A stretch of DNA of 64,000 bases from Candidatus Palauibacter sp. (GCF_965261555.1 NZ_OZ253465.1:686667-750666), one strand, 5' to 3'; counted from the stretch's first letter, positions 7,629 to 13,756 are shown. The notes: generated by a model from the letters alone, not told the origin. Numbers and translations: made by a program.

Positions 7629-7743
7629 CGTTCCCGCGGGGAGGCCTCCCCGGGCCGACGCCATCCCACTTTCCGACGCGGGCCGCCCACACTTATGCTA
7701 CGGAGGCACTTTGCCTTTCGGTTCCCTTCGCCCCGGTGCGTCC

Positions 7744-9384
7744 ATGGGTACAATCGGTAGACGAACGCTCGCAGCCACGCTGGTCGCCCTTCTCTCCGCT
7801 CCCACGGCTCTGGCGGCCGTGCAGGGCCTCCCCGACGATGAACTCGCGCCCCTCGTGGCCCGTGTCGAGGAAGGCGTACTCGAGCGCGCCAAGCTCGCCC
7901 AGGTCATGGTCGACAAGATCTTCTCCTTCTCCGAACTGGGGCAGCAGGAGATCGAGACCTCGGCCTACATCACCGGGATCCTGGAGGAGAACGGCTTCAC
8001 CGTCGAGTACGGGCCCGTGGGCATCCCGACCGCCTGGTTCGCGCGCTGGGGCAGCGGCTCGCCCGTCATCTCCTTCGGATCCGACATCGATGGAATTCCG
8101 AAGGCCAACCAGAAGCCCGGCGTCGCCTATCACGACCCGCTGATTCCGGGCGCGCCCGGCCACGGCGAAGGTCACAACTCCGGGCAGGCCGTGAACGTCG
8201 TGGCGGCGCTCGCGCTGAAGGACGTCATGGAGGCCGAGGGGATCGAGGGCACGCTCGTGCTCTGGCCCGGGGTCGCCGAAGAGCAGCTGGGCTCCAAGGC
8301 CTGGTACGTGCGGGACGGCTATCTCGAGGACATCGACGTCACCCTCTTCACGCACGTGAGCAGCAACCTGTCGGTGAGCTGGGGCCAGGGGAGCGGCACG
8401 GGGCTCGTCTCCGTGGAGTTCACCTTCGAGGGCGAGGCCGCCCACGGCGCGGGCGCTCCCTGGCGGGGCCGCAGCGCGCTCGACGCGGTCGAACTGATGA
8501 ACGTCGCCTGGAACTTCCGGCGCGAGCACCTGCGACCCGACCAGCGCTCCCACTACGTGATCAGCGACGGCGGCGACCAGCCGAACGTCGTGCCGCCGAG
8601 CGCTTCGGTATGGTACTTCATCCGCGAGATGGACTACGAGGACATCAAGCGCAACTTCGACACGGCCATCCGCATCGCGGAAGGCGCGGCCCTGATGACC
8701 GACACCGAAATGTCGTACCGGATCATCGGAGCCGCCTGGCCGCGACACTTCAACAAGGTCGTGGCCGAAACGATGCACGAACACATCGAGGAGGTCGGGC
8801 TTCCGGAGTGGACCGACGACGACCACGACTTCGCGAGCGCCGTGCAGCAGTCGGTGGGAAGCGTCCCATCCGGGATGCCCATCGCCCTCTCGGGCCTGGG
8901 GGAGCCGGGGCCGCGCCGGAGCGGCGGGTCCGACGACATCGGCGACATCTCGTGGAACGTGCCCACGGTGACGCTGCGCTTCCCGTCGAACGTGCCGGGG
9001 CTTCCGGGTCACCACTGGTCGAGCGCCATGGCGATGGCGACCCCCATCGCGCACAAGGGCGCGGTCGCCGGCGCGCGCGTCATGGCCCGCACGGCGCTCC
9101 AGCTCTTCGCCCAGCCGAAGCTCGTCGACGACGCGTGGACCTACTTCCGGGAGGAACAGACCTCCGCCATGGAGTATGTCCCCTTCATCGGCCCGGACGA
9201 CCCGCCCCCGATCGACCTCAACAGGGAGATCATGGACACCTTCCGTCCGCTCCTTGAGAAGTTCTATTATGACGAGACGCGCTTCGACACGTATCTTGAT
9301 CAGTTGGGGATCAAGTATCCGACTCTCTCGCGGCCGGCTTCGGCTTCCGCGGAGGACCGGCGGGATCACCCGGGATCGGATTGA
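7744..9384 (+). CDS. M20D family amidohydrolase/peptidase (AbgB-like) with signal peptide
   Basis: In-frame ATG at 7744 followed by a signal peptide (TLVALLSAPTALAAVQG); M20 dimerisation and metal-binding pattern (FTFEGEAAHGAGAPWRGRSALDAVELMN). Confidence 0.8.
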   Translation: MGTIGRRTLAATLVALLSAPTALAAVQGLPDDELAPLVARVEEGVLERAKLAQVMVDKIFSFSELGQQEIETSAYITGILEENGFTVEYGPVGIPTAWFARWGSGSPVISFGSDIDGIPKANQKPGVAYHDPLIPGAPGHGEGHNSGQAVNVVAALALKDVMEAEGIEGTLVLWPGVAEEQLGSKAWYVRDGYLEDIDVTLFTHVSSNLSVSWGQGSGTGLVSVEFTFEGEAAHGAGAPWRGRSALDAVELMNVAWNFRREHLRPDQRSHYVISDGGDQPNVVPPSASVWYFIREMDYEDIKRNFDTAIRIAEGAALMTDTEMSYRIIGAAWPRHFNKVVAETMHEHIEEVGLPEWTDDDHDFASAVQQSVGSVPSGMPIALSGLGEPGPRRSGGSDDIGDISWNVPTVTLRFPSNVPGLPGHHWSSAMAMATPIAHKGAVAGARVMARTALQLFAQPKLVDDAWTYFREEQTSAMEYVPFIGPDDPPPIDLNREIMDTFRPLLEKFYYDETRFDTYLDQLGIKYPTLSRPASASAEDRRDHPGSD

Positions 9385-9409: not shown

Positions 9410-9913
9410 ATGATCGACACAAGCCGCAGGCTTCTCTCCACAGCCGCCGCCATGCTGTTCGTGGTGACCCTCACCGGCGCGGGCGGCTCCACGGAGGCCG
9501 TCACGGAGCCCCCGGCCGACGCACCGGCGGCGGCATCGGCCGACGATCCCACCGAGGTGGGGTGGCGCCTCCTGGCCAGCCTCAACTACCGGACCGGCGA
9601 GCCGAGCGAGGAGTTGGCGGCCCTCTCGGGCAAGCTCGTCAAGATCCCCGGATTCACGGTGCCGCTCGAGGACTGGGCGTCCTCGGCGACGGAATTCCTC
9701 CTCGTGCCCTATGTCGGCGCCTGCATCCACACGCCGCCTCCACCGCCCAACCAGCTCGTCTACATCGAGATGGATGAGGGCAAGCGGGCGAAGCTGGACG
9801 GGTGGAACCCGGTGTGGGTCGAGGGCGTGCTGACGATCGAGATGACGGAGAGCGTGTACGGCTACGTCGGTTTCACCCTCTCCGGCCAGCAGGTCTATCC
9901 GTACGAGTCCTGA
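9410..9913 (+). CDS. DUF3299-family periplasmic protein (accessory to FtsX-type ABC exporters)
   Basis: ATG at 9410 with signal peptide; conserved VKIPGFTVPLE..LLVPYVGACIHTPPPPPNQLVYIEM pattern of DUF3299; directly upstream of an ABC ATPase/permease pair. Confidence 0.65.
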   Translation: MIDTSRRLLSTAAAMLFVVTLTGAGGSTEAVTEPPADAPAAASADDPTEVGWRLLASLNYRTGEPSEELAALSGKLVKIPGFTVPLEDWASSATEFLLVPYVGACIHTPPPPPNQLVYIEMDEGKRAKLDGWNPVWVEGVLTIEMTESVYGYVGFTLSGQQVYPYES

Positions 9914-9949
9914 TCCACGATGCGGCCACTCGCATGCATTGAGCGCGTC

Positions 9950-9985
9950 CTCGCAGCCCCGGGGGCGCGCTTTTTCATTGAACCA
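9950..9985 (+). terminator. possible intrinsic terminator / attenuator hairpin between the DUF3299 gene and the ABC ATPase
   Basis: GC-rich imperfect palindrome gcagccccgggggcgcgc followed by ctttttca. Confidence 0.3.
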
Positions 9986-10009
9986 CGCTCCGCAGGGAGA
10001 CGCCAGTAG

Positions 10010-10693
10010 ATGAGCCTCGCAATCGACCTCCGACGCCTGCGCTTCCGCTACGGTGGAGGCCCCTGGGTGCTGGACATCCCCGAACTGACCCTCGAGCGGG
10101 GGACGCGCGCGTTCCTGTTCGGTCCGAGCGGGAGCGGCAAGACCACGCTTCTCGGCGTGCTGGCGGGAGTGCTGGAAGCGGAAAAAGGCGAGGTCAGGGT
10201 GCTCGGCGAGGATCTCGCGTCGCTCTCGGGCGCGCAACGGGACGCCTTCCGGGCGGAGCACATCGGCTACGTCTTCCAGATGTTCAACCTCATCCCCTAC
10301 CTGTCGGTGCTCGACAACATCGCGCTCCCCGCGCGCATGAACGCGGAACGCCGGGCCCGGCTGGACGGGACAGGCGTGAGGGAGACCGCCACGCAGCTGG
10401 CCGATCATCTCCAGATCGGCGACCTGCTGAAGAAGCCGGTGACGGAACTCTCGGTGGGCCAGCAGCAGCGCGTGGCCGCCTGCCGGGCGCTGATCGGGTC
10501 TCCGGAACTCATCGTCGCCGATGAACCGACCTCCTCCCTCGACTTCGACCGCCGGGAGGCCTTCCTCGAACTGCTCTTCCAGGAGTGCGAGCGCGCCGGC
10601 GCCACGCTGGTGTTCGTGAGCCACGACCGCACCCTGGAGGGCATGTTCTCCCGCACCATCTCGCTTCCCGACGTCAACAAGGCGGTGCTCTGA
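10010..10693 (+). CDS. ABC transporter ATP-binding protein (MacB/LolD-like)
   Basis: Walker A GPSGSGKTT, signature LSVGQQQRVA, Walker B LIVADEPTSSLD; its stop overlaps the next start (TGATG). Confidence 0.9.
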   Translation: MSLAIDLRRLRFRYGGGPWVLDIPELTLERGTRAFLFGPSGSGKTTLLGVLAGVLEAEKGEVRVLGEDLASLSGAQRDAFRAEHIGYVFQMFNLIPYLSVLDNIALPARMNAERRARLDGTGVRETATQLADHLQIGDLLKKPVTELSVGQQQRVAACRALIGSPELIVADEPTSSLDFDRREAFLELLFQECERAGATLVFVSHDRTLEGMFSRTISLPDVNKAVL

Positions 10694-12201
10694 TGCTGGT
10701 CTTCGATCTCGCGCTCAAGTCGCTCCGCAATCGCGCCTTCAGCACCTCGCTCACGGTGGGCTCCATCGCCCTCAGCGTCGCCCTCCTGATCGGCGTGGAG
10801 AACGTGCGCGTGGGGATGCGCGAGAGCTTCTCCAACACCATCAGCCAGACCGACCTCATCGTGGGCACCAAGGGCGGCACGATTCAGCTGCTGCTGTATT
10901 CGGTCTTCGGCATGGGAGCGCCGACGGAGAACGTCTCGTGGGAGGCCTACAGAGAGTGGGCGGACCACCCCGCGGTCGAGTGGACCATCCCCTACGGCCT
11001 GGGGGACAGCCACAGAGGGTTCCGGGTCATCGGCACGAACGAGGACTTCTACCGCCACTACCGCTACCGCGGAGGTCAGCAGATCGCGCTGGCCGAGGGA
11101 CGGGCGAACGAGGGCCTGTTCGACGTGACGCTGGGCGCGGACGTGGCGACCGAGCTGAACTACGCGCTCGGCGACGAGATCGCGGTGACGCACGGGCTCG
11201 GCGAAGTGGGTTTCGTGACCCACGACCACATGCCCTTCACGGTCACGGGCGTCCTCGCGAAGACGTTCACCCCCGTCGACCGCGCGATCTACGTGACCCT
11301 CGAGGGCATGGAGGCCATCCACTGGGAGGACGGAGCGCCGCCAGCGTCGGACGACGAACACGACCACGAGGCGGAGGCGGAGGCGGCCCCCGCCGACGAT
11401 GGCCACGCCCATGACGACGAGGCCGAGGCGCACGCGGCTTCCGCCGACGACGGCCACGCCCATGACGACGAGGCCGAGGCGCACGCGGCTTCCGCCGACG
11501 ACGGCCACGCCCATGACGACGAGGCCGAGGCCGAGGCGGCTTCCGCCGACGATGGCCACGCCCACGACGACGAAGCGGAGGCGCAGGCGGCTCCCGCCGA
11601 TGATGGCCACGTCCACGCGGAGGATATCTCGATCGAGGATGTCGAGGTCACGCAGGTCACCTCGTTCTTCGTGGGCACGACCAACCGCCGGGACGTGCTC
11701 CAGCTGCAGCGCGAGATCAACGACTTCGAGGATGAGCCGATGATGGCCGTGATCCCCGGCGTCGCCCTGAACGAGATGTGGCAGGGCCTGGCCTACGCCG
11801 AGACCGGGCTGCGGCTGGTGGCCATCTTCGTTGTCCTGGTAGGGCTGCTCGGGATGCTGGTCTCGCTCTACACGTCGCTCAACGAGCGCCGGCGCGAGAT
11901 GGCGATCCTGCGCGCCGTCGGCGCCGGACCCAACCGGATCATCACCCTGCTCGTGCTCGAATCGCTGTGTCTGGCCTCGGCGGGAGCGCTCGCGGGACTC
12001 ACGCTGGTGTACGCGCTGCTCTCGGTCGCACAGCCCATCGTCGAGGCGCAGGCGGGGCTCTTCATCCCGATCCGGCCGCCCGGTTCCATCGAGCTGCTCT
12101 TCCTCGGCGCCGTGGTGCTGGCCGGATTCCTGATGGGCTTCGTACCCGCGCTCAAGGCCTACCGCACCGCCCTCCACGACGGGCTGGCGGTGCGGGTCTA
12201 G
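10693..12201 (+). CDS. ABC transporter permease (FtsX/MacB-like) with a His-rich repeat insertion in the periplasmic loop
   Basis: N-terminal TM then MacB_PCD-like loop, C-terminal FtsX 3-TM bundle; loop carries 4.5 x ADDGHAHDDEAEAHAAS repeats. Confidence 0.85.
   Translation: MLVFDLALKSLRNRAFSTSLTVGSIALSVALLIGVENVRVGMRESFSNTISQTDLIVGTKGGTIQLLLYSVFGMGAPTENVSWEAYREWADHPAVEWTIPYGLGDSHRGFRVIGTNEDFYRHYRYRGGQQIALAEGRANEGLFDVTLGADVATELNYALGDEIAVTHGLGEVGFVTHDHMPFTVTGVLAKTFTPVDRAIYVTLEGMEAIHWEDGAPPASDDEHDHEAEAEAAPADDGHAHDDEAEAHAASADDGHAHDDEAEAHAASADDGHAHDDEAEAEAASADDGHAHDDEAEAQAAPADDGHVHAEDISIEDVEVTQVTSFFVGTTNRRDVLQLQREINDFEDEPMMAVIPGVALNEMWQGLAYAETGLRLVAIFVVLVGLLGMLVSLYTSLNERRREMAILRAVGAGPNRIITLLVLESLCLASAGALAGLTLVYALLSVAQPIVEAQAGLFIPIRPPGSIELLFLGAVVLAGFLMGFVPALKAYRTALHDGLAVRV
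11392..11625 (+). repeat. 51-bp in-frame tandem repeat (about 4.5 units) encoding a His/Asp/Glu-rich motif
   Basis: Units at 11392, 11443, 11494 and 11545 are near-identical (gccgacgatggccacgcccatgacgacgaggccgaggcgcacgcggcttcc). Confidence 0.85.
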
Positions 12202-12243
12202 CGGACCGCGGGCTGCCGGCGGCCCTCAGCCTGCCGGTAGCTC

Positions 12244-13050
12244 TCAGCTCGATGCGCGGGCGGGCTCCTCCACCTGCGCATACGCGTCGTGCTCGTGGAT
12301 CGACTCGAAGTTGATCACGTGGACGCTGAACCAGGTCACGTGGCTCAGTGCGCGGAGACGGAGCGTGACCTCGCGGACCAGGTCCTCGACGAACCGGGGA
12401 TTGTCGTACGCGTGCTCCGTGACCCACTTCTCGTCGGCGCGTTTCAGCACGGGATAGAGCTCGCACGAGGCCGATGCGTCCACCAGCGCCACGACATCCT
12501 CTATCCACAGCCGCCCCGTGAAGCGCGTCTTGACGGTGACGATGCTGCGCTGGTTGTGCGCCCCGCGCGCGCTGATCTCCCGGGAGCACGGACACAGCGT
12601 CGTCACGGGGATCTTGACCGTGAGGATGAAGTCGTCCTCCGCTCCGCTGGAGGCGTCGAAGGCGCAATCGTACGACAGCAGGCCCGCCGCACCGGTCACG
12701 GGAGCTTGCTTCTCCACGAAGTAGGGGAAGGAGATGCCGAGGTGGGCGGTCTCGGCGTTGAGGCGCTCGCGCATCGTGCGCAGGATCGCGGGCAGCGCTT
12801 CCACCGAGATCTCGTCATCGTACGAATTGAGGATCTCCATGAAGCGGCTCATGTGGGTCCCCTTGAAGTCGTGGGGAAGGTCCACGGACATGTCGATGTT
12901 GGCGATCGTGTGCTGCGCCGTCTTCCGTCGGTCCCTCACGGAGATGGGAAAGCGGACGTTCTGTACGCCCACGCGGCTGATCGGCACCATGCGCGTGTCG
13001 GGATGGGCCTGCACGTCGGCCAGCGGGGCCGCGTCGAGGAAGTTCGTCAT
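12244..13050 (-). CDS. folE2: GTP cyclohydrolase I type 2 (FolE2/MptA family)
   Basis: 268 aa; family-typical N-terminus (DVQ..PDTRMVPISRVGVQNVRFPI) and a Cys-rich active-site region (TTLCPCSREIS). Confidence 0.75.
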   Translation of the reverse strand: MTNFLDAAPLADVQAHPDTRMVPISRVGVQNVRFPISVRDRRKTAQHTIANIDMSVDLPHDFKGTHMSRFMEILNSYDDEISVEALPAILRTMRERLNAETAHLGISFPYFVEKQAPVTGAAGLLSYDCAFDASSGAEDDFILTVKIPVTTLCPCSREISARGAHNQRSIVTVKTRFTGRLWIEDVVALVDASASCELYPVLKRADEKWVTEHAYDNPRFVEDLVREVTLRLRALSHVTWFSVHVINFESIHEHDAYAQVEEPARASS

Positions 13051-13716: not shown

Positions 13717-13756
13717 GGTTTGCATAATTATTCACCATCTGGTATAATTTTCCGCT
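13717..13756 (+). promoter_or_regulatory. candidate sigma70 promoter (TTGCAT-17-TATAAT) overlapped by two tandem ARG-box-like sites upstream of argG
   Basis: TTTGCATAATTATTCACC at 13719-13736 matches the ARG-box consensus tnTGAATwwwwATTCAnw with one core mismatch; a second weaker box CTGGTATAATTTTCCGCT lies 2 bp downstream; -35 TTGCAT at 13720-13725 and -10 TATAAT at 13743-13748. Confidence 0.5.

Follow-up and report, generated by a model that had tools for sequence, protein, structure and literature searches.

A histidine-rich tandem-repeat loop in the permease of a Zrg/PA4063-PA4066-family ABC module of Candidatus Palauibacter: recurrence at one site, complementarity with zrgA and a candidate role in metal handling

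Introduction

The Zrg system of Vibrio and the PA4063-PA4066 system of Pseudomonas are the closest described relatives of the locus reported here, a cluster of M20 amidohydrolase, DUF3299, ATPase and permease genes from Candidatus Palauibacter sp., in which a tandem repeat within the ATP-binding cassette (ABC) permease gene encodes a loop rich in His, Asp and Glu. The 64,000-nucleotide stretch that we analyzed (GCF_965261555.1 NZ_OZ253465.1:686667-750666, one strand) is called the window throughout. Operons of the Zrg/PA4063-PA4066 type are Zur-regulated and linked to zinc (PMC9817125, PMC9820375, PMC11481552), and in Vibrio, where the DUF3299 protein is ZrgE, the genes zrgE and zrgA and those for the permease and the ATPase are induced 75- to 205-fold by zinc limitation (PMC9817125). 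ZrgA/PA4063 (PF10986, formerly DUF2796) binds zinc in the periplasm, has disordered loops rich in His and is needed by the Vibrio system (PMC9820375), which has been reported as a zinc importer (PMC9820375) and aids growth under zinc limitation (PMC9820375, PMC9817125). PA4063 binds cobalt besides zinc, and the Pseudomonas system alters cobalt content (PMC11481552); PA4063 has also been proposed to be a concentration sensor (PMC8561739). PA4066 of Pseudomonas aeruginosa, the DUF3299 protein with the structure PDB 4hsp (PMC8561739), shows no evident zinc binding (PMC11481552).

The mechanism of these systems is disputed, being read as a zinc importer in Vibrio and as a pyochelin-cobalt exporter in Pseudomonas, and the question bears on the roles of ZrgA and DUF3299 and on the way in which a transporter of the MacB fold could deal with a metal ion at all. 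The type of system and the existence of His-rich loops in zinc proteins are already known; what our comparisons add is a His-rich element on the permease itself, a candidate fixed site of five residues, and an exclusion across phyla between this tract in cis and zrgA. In the literature library that we searched, we found no report of a His-rich tract in the permease or of its exclusion with ZrgA, nor of its recurrence next to an invariant His, of tandem repeats varying at this position, or of a chimeric operon joining M20, the M20-linked DUF3299 paralogue (DUF3299b) and ABC genes.

Results

The repeat is in frame within the permease gene (coordinates of all features are given in Table 1), and encodes units of the DDGHAHDDEAEA type, each of 17 residues, AADDGHAHDDEAEA(H/E/Q)A(S/P). 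Four central units are identical at 45-48 of 51 positions, or 88-94% at the DNA level, and degenerate units stand at both flanks. A preliminary description of this DNA, made from the sequence alone, had reported 4.5 in-frame 51-bp repeats encoding about 15 His and many acidic residues; the period, the frame and the acidic character stand, and the counts are revised to 5.0 copies by Tandem Repeats Finder and to 14 His. The loop in which the repeat lies begins directly after His210, an invariant residue of the family, and extends for 111 residues to the segment VTSFFVG, with 41 Asp+Glu, 32 Ala and no Lys or Arg beside its 14 His; the permease outside the loop has 8 His. It can be read as about six DDGHxH(D/E)3 units, roughly five of which fall within the Tandem Repeats Finder array, the other being a degenerate DDEHDH. 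The exact copy number is that of one assembly, and copy number is the only property of the repeat that could plausibly change.

All of the close homologues in which the anchor could be recognized (119 of 119) carry a His/Asp/Glu-rich insert at the identical site, of 42-206 residues and with 4-35 His. The loop is no peculiarity of this one gene, being a recurrent feature of the family at this site. The consensus across these homologues is P-A-D-D-G-H-[AV]-H-[DE]-[ED]-E-A-E-A-A; 93% of their 1788 loop His occur in HxH pairs, Asp is found at position -3 in 82% and at position -2 in 90% of motifs, Gly at position -1 in 71%, and Lys and Arg together make up 0.1%. To judge from these alignments, the motif is constrained in a way that random low-complexity sequence is not.

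The length of the loop, by comparison, changes quickly. Loops differ by tens of residues between proteins whose remaining sequence is at least 94% identical, and a survey of related loci (one genome per species, seeded with a 20-sequence permease alignment; 80 loci, cited below by their L numbers) found tandem repeats at the same permease loop site with periods of 45, 87, 102 and 18 bp. Because relatives show other periods and lengths at this site, we regard the repeat as genuine and as subject to fast turnover, which bears out the earlier suggestion of copy-number variation. That suggestion had come with the caveat of an assembly error, and 51-bp repeats at 88-94% identity can indeed collapse or expand in short-read assembly; however, 119 homologues share the insert at one and the same codon position, their assemblies are many and independent, chromosome-level ones included, and the repeat is in frame with its motif conserved, so that as a class the repeat is not an artefact, and an artefactual origin of the window copy is scarcely credible. 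An extreme loop occurs in L003 (8001-9998), with 274 residues and 56 His in a permease of 665 residues.

We also examined a more distant set of 144 full-length representatives, clustered at 50% identity. The loop at the post-His210 site has a median length of 29 residues in this set, with at least 3 His in 52%, at least 5 in 38% and at least 10 in 22% of representatives, and the extreme cases have 54 His within 174 residues and 41 within 172. Other compositions were seen at this site. Several Gemmatimonadaceae (L005, L008, L012, L014 and L065, with the loop at about 8600-8900, and P0122 and P0125) have Met/Pro-rich repeats of the type MPGAxPPP, up to about 125 residues long and with DNA repeat periods of 24-84 bp, which might suit Cu(I), by analogy with Met-rich copper proteins, or might be a plain spacer. 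The permease of a Pseudomonas metagenome-assembled genome has a 76-residue insert without His enrichment in the same loop. Some long members of the family (P0121, 725 residues; P0137, 775 residues; L036, 8001-10178) have a short plain loop, and permeases of 725-775 residues must have a large additional region outside the loop, probably a C-terminal one.

The His-rich loop and zrgA exclude each other. Clustering of neighboring open reading frames in the 80 loci identified the ZrgA family (PF10986, 4.7e-52) in 33 loci and a Fur-family gene in about ten. We compared loop and zrgA in the 62 loci with enough flanking DNA, counting a loop as His-rich if it contained at least 3 His. None of the 19 loci with a His-rich loop has zrgA; of the 43 loci below that threshold, 26 have zrgA and 17 do not. 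The two are thus never found together (Fisher 2.5e-6, with kinship ignored). On a loop-masked neighbor-joining tree of the permeases, each of the two characters changes about ten times, and at least five separate phylogenetic contrasts all point in the same direction: Xanthomonas L030 versus Lysobacteraceae L061, L026 versus L069, L015 and L019 versus L060, L023 and L046 versus L074, and the Palauibacter clade versus L025. The ZrgA proteins themselves have 7-13 His per 40 residues, that of L025 with a DHDHDEDDH-type run. A scan of neighboring genes for His-rich proteins confirmed this richness of ZrgA and was otherwise swamped by noise, since out-of-frame reading frames are rich in Arg and His in high-GC loci. 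A profile built from the ZrgA proteins of the 33 loci found no match in a six-frame translation of the whole 64-kb window. A search with the ZrgA of L025 returned many Gemmatimonadota homologues, with none named Palauibacter among the best 120 of 217 matches; this is weak evidence for absence, as it concerns those best 120 matches only.

Pfam, AlphaFold2 and Foldseek agree with the first description of the permease as MacB/LolCDE-like. The AlphaFold2 model, calculated from a 77-sequence alignment, has a mean predicted local distance difference test score (pLDDT) of 86.5, with most of the core above 95, and contains transmembrane helices at about residues 15-47, 355-398, 413-454 and 465-498 and a domain at residues 48-354; hydropathy likewise gives four hydrophobic segments, with Lys and Arg concentrated at the N-terminus and in the loop between the second and third helices. 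Both analyses put the repeat between the first and second helices, in agreement with its proposed periplasmic location, and by homology with solved type VII ABC transporters the whole of residues 48-354 of the model, including the repeat, is periplasmic. Most of residues 214-296 have a pLDDT below 50, with values that climb again from about residue 300. From the order of secondary structure elements we infer that the insert sits where the chain leaves the distal subdomain to return toward the membrane-proximal one. Foldseek matches in the PDB (2e-13 to 1e-8) include LolE (2.1e-13), Spr0694/5 (2.6e-11) and MacB (2.8e-11), and also HrtBA and YbbAP; TM-scores on the query are modest, at 0.35-0.53, for which the disorder of the 111-residue loop is partly responsible. 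The periplasmic domain has no detectable sequence similarity to any solved structure, and the transmembrane region alone gives a match. Four transmembrane helices, a large domain between the first two, MacB_PCD and FtsX domains and an intact cognate ATPase together place the protein among type VII ABC permeases.

Within this domain, 144-145 of 145 sequences retain each of five residues, namely D105, H167, H177, D196 and H210, and all five are present in 79 of 79 locus permeases, with zrgA or without it alike. They remain invariant at overall identities of 35-59%, and these three His and two Asp are a strong candidate for a metal site on grounds of conservation within a family linked to zinc.

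The module, which comprises an ATPase in the cytoplasm, the four-helix permease and a DUF3299 protein in the periplasm, is a member of the Zrg/PA4063-PA4066 family. We place it there because its DUF3299 protein matches PA4066, because its permease aligns with that of Pseudomonas cichorii L040 (37% identity across residues 1-502), whose neighbors match PA4063 (5.7e-52) and PA4066 (2.4e-55), and because a DUF3299 gene adjoins the permease in 72 of the 80 loci. The description of DUF3299 as a conserved partner of such ABC systems therefore holds, with ZrgE and PA4066 as the representatives in Zur-regulated systems; the copy in the window, however, is the M20-linked paralogue. Better-known transporters of similar parts were considered and rejected. 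The permease scores far under the NCBIfam cut-offs for MacB, LolCE and FtsX. A MacAB-TolC tripartite pump does not fit an ATPase encoded by a separate gene, a MacB score of 23.4 bits against a cut-off of 966, and neighbors that include no adaptor; LolCDE lipoprotein release does not fit a single permease gene with an NCBIfam lolCE score of 37.3 bits against 362; and a classical ZnuABC-type importer does not fit a four-helix type VII permease in an operon without a binding-protein gene.

Comparison with outgroup Gemmatimonadota suggests how the operon arose. L081 and L083 have two units, a divergent zrgA operon (L081 779-5702; L083 704-5651) and, a few kb away, an M20-DUF3299b pair with no ABC genes following it. 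In the former, zrgA is divergent from genes for the ABC-linked DUF3299a, the ATPase, the permease, a DsbA-like thioredoxin, MerC (L081 only) and, at the end, a Fur-family regulator of 122 residues; the permeases have 420-421 residues and a 30-residue loop without His, and L025 likewise combines zrgA with a plain 30-residue loop. In L081 and L083 the divergent spacer between zrgA and DUF3299a contains GAATAnATTnTCAGT, which is AT-rich and box-like; L025 and L082 have elements that resemble it. Since the M20 protein of the window is 82-84% identical to the M20 proteins of the L081 and L083 pairs, and its DUF3299 protein groups with DUF3299b and not with DUF3299a, we read the M20-DUF3299b-ATPase-permease operon of Palauibacter and Longimicrobiales as a fusion of the two units, in which zrgA, DUF3299a and the Fur tail would have been lost. 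The synteny with M20 upstream is kept in 8 loci. Within this Palauibacter/Longimicrobiales clade the loop forms a series, being plain in L009 and L013 (neither with zrgA), carrying a single HTH in L007, L011 and L029, and bearing expanded arrays in the window and in L001-L004 and L006.

Desulfosediminicola L019 (9319-12304) has an Amidohydro_1 gene between two DUF3299 genes downstream of the permease, and is a second pairing of a metallohydrolase with DUF3299 besides the M20 gene of the window.

The remaining features of the locus are listed in Table 1; the DUF3299, ATPase and permease genes proposed at first were recovered with exact coordinates and Pfam matches for all.

Table 1. Features of the M20-DUF3299-ATPase-permease locus and its surroundings (window coordinates)
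Feature	Position	Strand	Basis
Promoter-like TTTCCG-N18-TATGCT, about 45 nucleotides upstream of the M20 start	7670..7699	+	Conserved in 8 loci
Secreted M20-family amidohydrolase gene	7744..9384	+	NCBIfam TIGR01891 amidohydrolase 2.8e-46
DUF3299 gene (PA4066/ZrgE family, M20-linked paralogue 'b')	9410..9913	+	Pfam PF11736 1.6e-33; PDB 4hsp 2.2e-22
GC-rich hairpin and TTTTTC, between DUF3299 and ATPase genes	9941..9977	+	Stem 9941-9972, 13 pairs, 9 G-C
ABC ATPase gene (ZrgC/PA4064-like)	10010..10693	+	Pfam ABC_tran PF00005 ~3e-30 (3.1e-30)
Type VII ABC permease gene (ZrgB/PA4065 family), 502 residues	10693..12201	+	MacB_PCD PF12704 2e-13; FtsX PF02687 3.6e-17
His/Asp/Glu-rich disordered loop, residues 211-321	11323..11655	+	Composition, AlphaFold2 pLDDT, homologue inserts
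51-bp tandem repeat, 5.0 copies	11362..11615	+	Tandem Repeats Finder: 90% matches, score 389
FolE2 GTP cyclohydrolase gene, convergent to permease	12244..13050	-	NCBIfam FolE2 7.3e-86

The ATPase has the expected motifs in translation (Walker A GPSGSGKT, signature LSVGQQQR, Walker B LIVADEP and H-loop SHD), and its best NCBIfam matches are FtsE, YbbA and LolD, each under its cut-off. The DUF3299 protein has a signal-like segment at its N-terminus and shares with PA4066 the motif LLVPYxGACIHxPPPPxNQ (window 9700-9745, residues ~98-112), whose Cys and His, one of each, could serve as a pair of ligands. The N-terminus of the M20 amidohydrolase (window 7744-7830) reads MGTIGRRTLAATLVALL, and its twin-arginine-like RR would mean that the enzyme is exported in the folded state.

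The four genes are probably co-transcribed. The gap between M20 and DUF3299 is 25 nucleotides, the ATPase stop and the permease start share a TGATG overlap, and the promoter-like element upstream of M20, which a strict sigma-70 scan did not call, keeps both TTTCCG and TATGCT in 8 of 8 Palauibacter/Longimicrobiales loci in spite of differing upstream genes. This conserved element and the 25-nucleotide gap suggest a single transcript, which likely starts at TTTCCG-N18-TATGCT. Between the DUF3299 and ATPase genes, the preliminary description had placed, at about 9950-9985, a hairpin with a T-run that would act as an attenuator setting stoichiometry. The hairpin and the T-run are real; attenuation is only one possible reading, because the hairpin lies at the fusion seam and is deleted in L001, the nearest relative, where the ATPase starts 33 nucleotides past the DUF3299 stop. 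It may instead be the leftover terminator of the ancestral M20-DUF3299 unit, a reading that we hold as a tentative alternative falling a little short of even chances. That reading agrees with the hairpin's place exactly at the junction, behind a DUF3299 paralogue that has no ABC genes after it in outgroups, and with a count of terminator-like sites at the level of chance (2 found against 2.1 expected in shuffles). On the other hand, L002 and L009 keep the 13-pair stem and the U-run through pair-preserving changes (U.G to C-G and U.G to U-A) with differing loops, the hairpin being weaker in L003 and L006, and L081 showed no corresponding hairpin after its DUF3299b gene. Moreover, the ~32 nucleotides from the T-run to the ATPase start, which contain a GGGAGA ribosome-binding site, leave little room for a promoter, so the ABC genes probably rely on read-through, which would amount to attenuation in practice. 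A partial terminator is a plausible description of the hairpin.

Downstream, folE2 adjoins the permease only in the window, L001 and L002. FolE2 is a zinc-independent isozyme that often lies within Zur regulons, and its convergent position is a weak hint of zinc. The 42-nucleotide gap between the permease and folE2 (window 12201-12248) contains a GC-rich palindrome and an 18-bp direct repeat of 2.0 copies; this may be a bidirectional terminator without a T-run. The sole strong sigma-70-like match of the region, TTTGCA-N18-TATAAT with TG, lies upstream of argG at window 13719-13748, where it overlaps TGCATAATTATTCA, a near-palindrome that is AT-rich and ARG box-like.

Discussion

The observations of this study are an in-frame tandem repeat within a periplasmic loop of a type VII fold, its recurrence at one site across a family to which the window module belongs, and its complementarity with zrgA. 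These make the metal-binding role proposed in the preliminary description well motivated, as does the constrained HxH motif. We favor, with somewhat better than even confidence, the interpretation that the repeat is a tethered periplasmic tract that collects metal, probably zinc, and replaces the His-rich loops of ZrgA. That the tract binds metal is likely. Whether zinc is its main metal is an even call, and so, at about the same level, is its substitution for ZrgA; that the net role is acquisition rather than export we put forward with some reserve, as slightly under an even chance. The label of exporter given to the system at the outset is not established, since the homologous systems are reported to import zinc in Vibrio (PMC9820375) and to export pyochelin-cobalt in Pseudomonas (PMC11481552).

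As a mechanism, we suggest that the tract would be a low-affinity, high-capacity collector of divalent metal, most likely Zn2+ at about one ion per unit, acting in cis as the His-rich loops of ZrgA/PA4063 act in trans. It would raise the local level of metal and hand the metal to a fixed site that D105, H167, H177, D196 and H210 would form in the same domain, from which the next step would be driven by the ATP-powered movement of the periplasmic domain. Replication slippage would tune the number of binding units between strains. In its most general form, which we offer as a speculation with the odds somewhat against it, the His-rich tract would be a movable module, carried either on soluble ZrgA or in cis on the permease loop beside the three-His/two-Asp site, and tuned by slippage.

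Several observations weigh against the tract being a zinc collector that stands in for ZrgA. The contingency statistic for loop and zrgA ignores phylogeny. Seventeen zrgA-less loci, among them the close relatives L009 and L013, have plain loops, so the tract is not required whenever zrgA is missing, and a zrgA gene could lie elsewhere in the 3.8-Mb genome. The 64-kb window contains no Fur-family open reading frame. Near the operon, intergenic reading and an inverted-repeat scan gave only GC-rich palindromes at chance level and no AT-rich one, and GAATAnATTnTCAGT has no match in the window even with 3 mismatches, although the Zur motif of the phylum may differ. Zinc control of the operon is for these reasons unsupported. 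In other phyla, loci of the His-loop type adjoin unrelated housekeeping or regulatory genes; the 20 neighbors scanned with Pfam included no zinc-specific gene and their contexts were heterogeneous, the ATPase-permease-DUF3299 module behaving as a cassette complete in itself. Type VII ABC transporters are not known to carry substrates over the inner membrane; in Pseudomonas, the permease and ATPase have been modeled as a split MacB-type transporter and proposed to export pyochelin-cobalt (PMC11481552). In culture, V. cholerae ZrgA can do without its His-rich loop (PMC9820375).

One alternative is that the tract is functionally neutral, a slippage-prone expansion of low complexity in a permissive surface loop, with no part in metal handling. 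Loop length varies over 42-206 residues among close relatives, other compositions occur in the same loop (Met/Pro-rich in Gemmatimonadaceae, 76 residues without His enrichment in the Pseudomonas metagenome-assembled genome), L009 and L013 have neither tract nor zrgA, and the ZrgA loop is not needed in culture (PMC9820375). Neutrality would not, however, lead one to expect a tight motif with a DDG prefix, 93% of His in HxH pairs and almost no Lys or Arg, nor a His-rich composition that arose about ten times at one site, is present in 52% of distant representatives, begins right after an invariant His and is never found alongside zrgA, and we consider this explanation improbable. An unlikely explanation, if less so than neutrality, is that the system is a MacB-type exporter, for extrusion from the periplasm or detoxification, in which the tract binds an expelled metal or metallophore, or senses metal and gates the ATPase. 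The type VII fold with its mechanotransmission on periplasmic substrates, the proposals of pyochelin-cobalt export by PA4064/PA4065 (PMC11481552) and of a sensor function for PA4063 (PMC8561739), and the lack of a zinc-starvation regulator or box in the window all agree with export. Against it, no gene for a membrane-fusion protein or outer-membrane factor adjoins the operon, NCBIfam MacB scores about 23 bits against its cut-off of 966, the homologues in Vibrio help cells to grow when zinc is limiting (PMC9820375, PMC9817125), and the outgroup Gemmatimonadota operons include a Fur-family gene, which fits a metal-responsive operon like those of Zur-controlled uptake.

A further alternative, which we rate at roughly one chance in four, keeps the metal-collecting tract and changes the metal, to Ni, Co, Cu(II) or Cd in this marine organism. 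HxH flanked by carboxylates also binds Ni2+, Cu2+ and Co2+, and the Met/Pro-rich repeats of sister lineages would suit Cu(I), if the analogy with Met-rich copper proteins holds; in Pseudomonas, PA4063 binds cobalt and the system affects cobalt content (PMC11481552). The sole experimentally characterized relatives are nonetheless Zur-regulated and linked to zinc, and the locus has no pointers to enzymes or regulators of Ni, Co or Cu.

If the tract is a movable module of the kind suggested above, the actual handling of metal would fall to the periplasmic domain of a type VII (mechanotransmission) transporter, ZrgA would serve as an auxiliary antenna and not as a binding protein of the classical kind, and the family would represent a mode of ABC-driven metal acquisition unlike that of binding-protein-dependent importers. 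The number of units would be tuned by slippage, the homologues and related loci that we examined having between 4 and 56 His, and in marine Gemmatimonadota the amount of metal that a membrane protein can bind may be set by the copy number of a tandem repeat.

Comparison with known systems

Set beside MacB, LolCDE, FtsEX, HrtBA and YbbAP, the window permease has the same fold and topology and the same MacB_PCD and FtsX domains; it differs in having a single permease gene and no gene for an adaptor or outer-membrane partner. The Zrg/PA4063-PA4066 systems share more with it, namely a separate ATPase, a four-helix permease with a large periplasmic domain, an adjacent DUF3299 gene and the invariant Asp and His residues. 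They differ from it in having zrgA and zrgD, with the His-rich tract on ZrgA rather than on a permease loop, whereas the window has a different DUF3299 paralogue, placed upstream and after an M20 gene, has no Fur/Zur gene or box that we could detect, and belongs to a marine gemmatimonadote. The tract itself resembles the loops of ZnuA (cluster A-I) and of ZrgA/PA4063, in which a flexible segment rich in His, Asp and Glu lies beside a fixed metal site and supplies extra sites of low affinity (PMC8561739, PMC9820375). Unlike those loops, the tract described here is within a membrane permease, is encoded by near-perfect tandem DNA repeats, and is far longer in some relatives.

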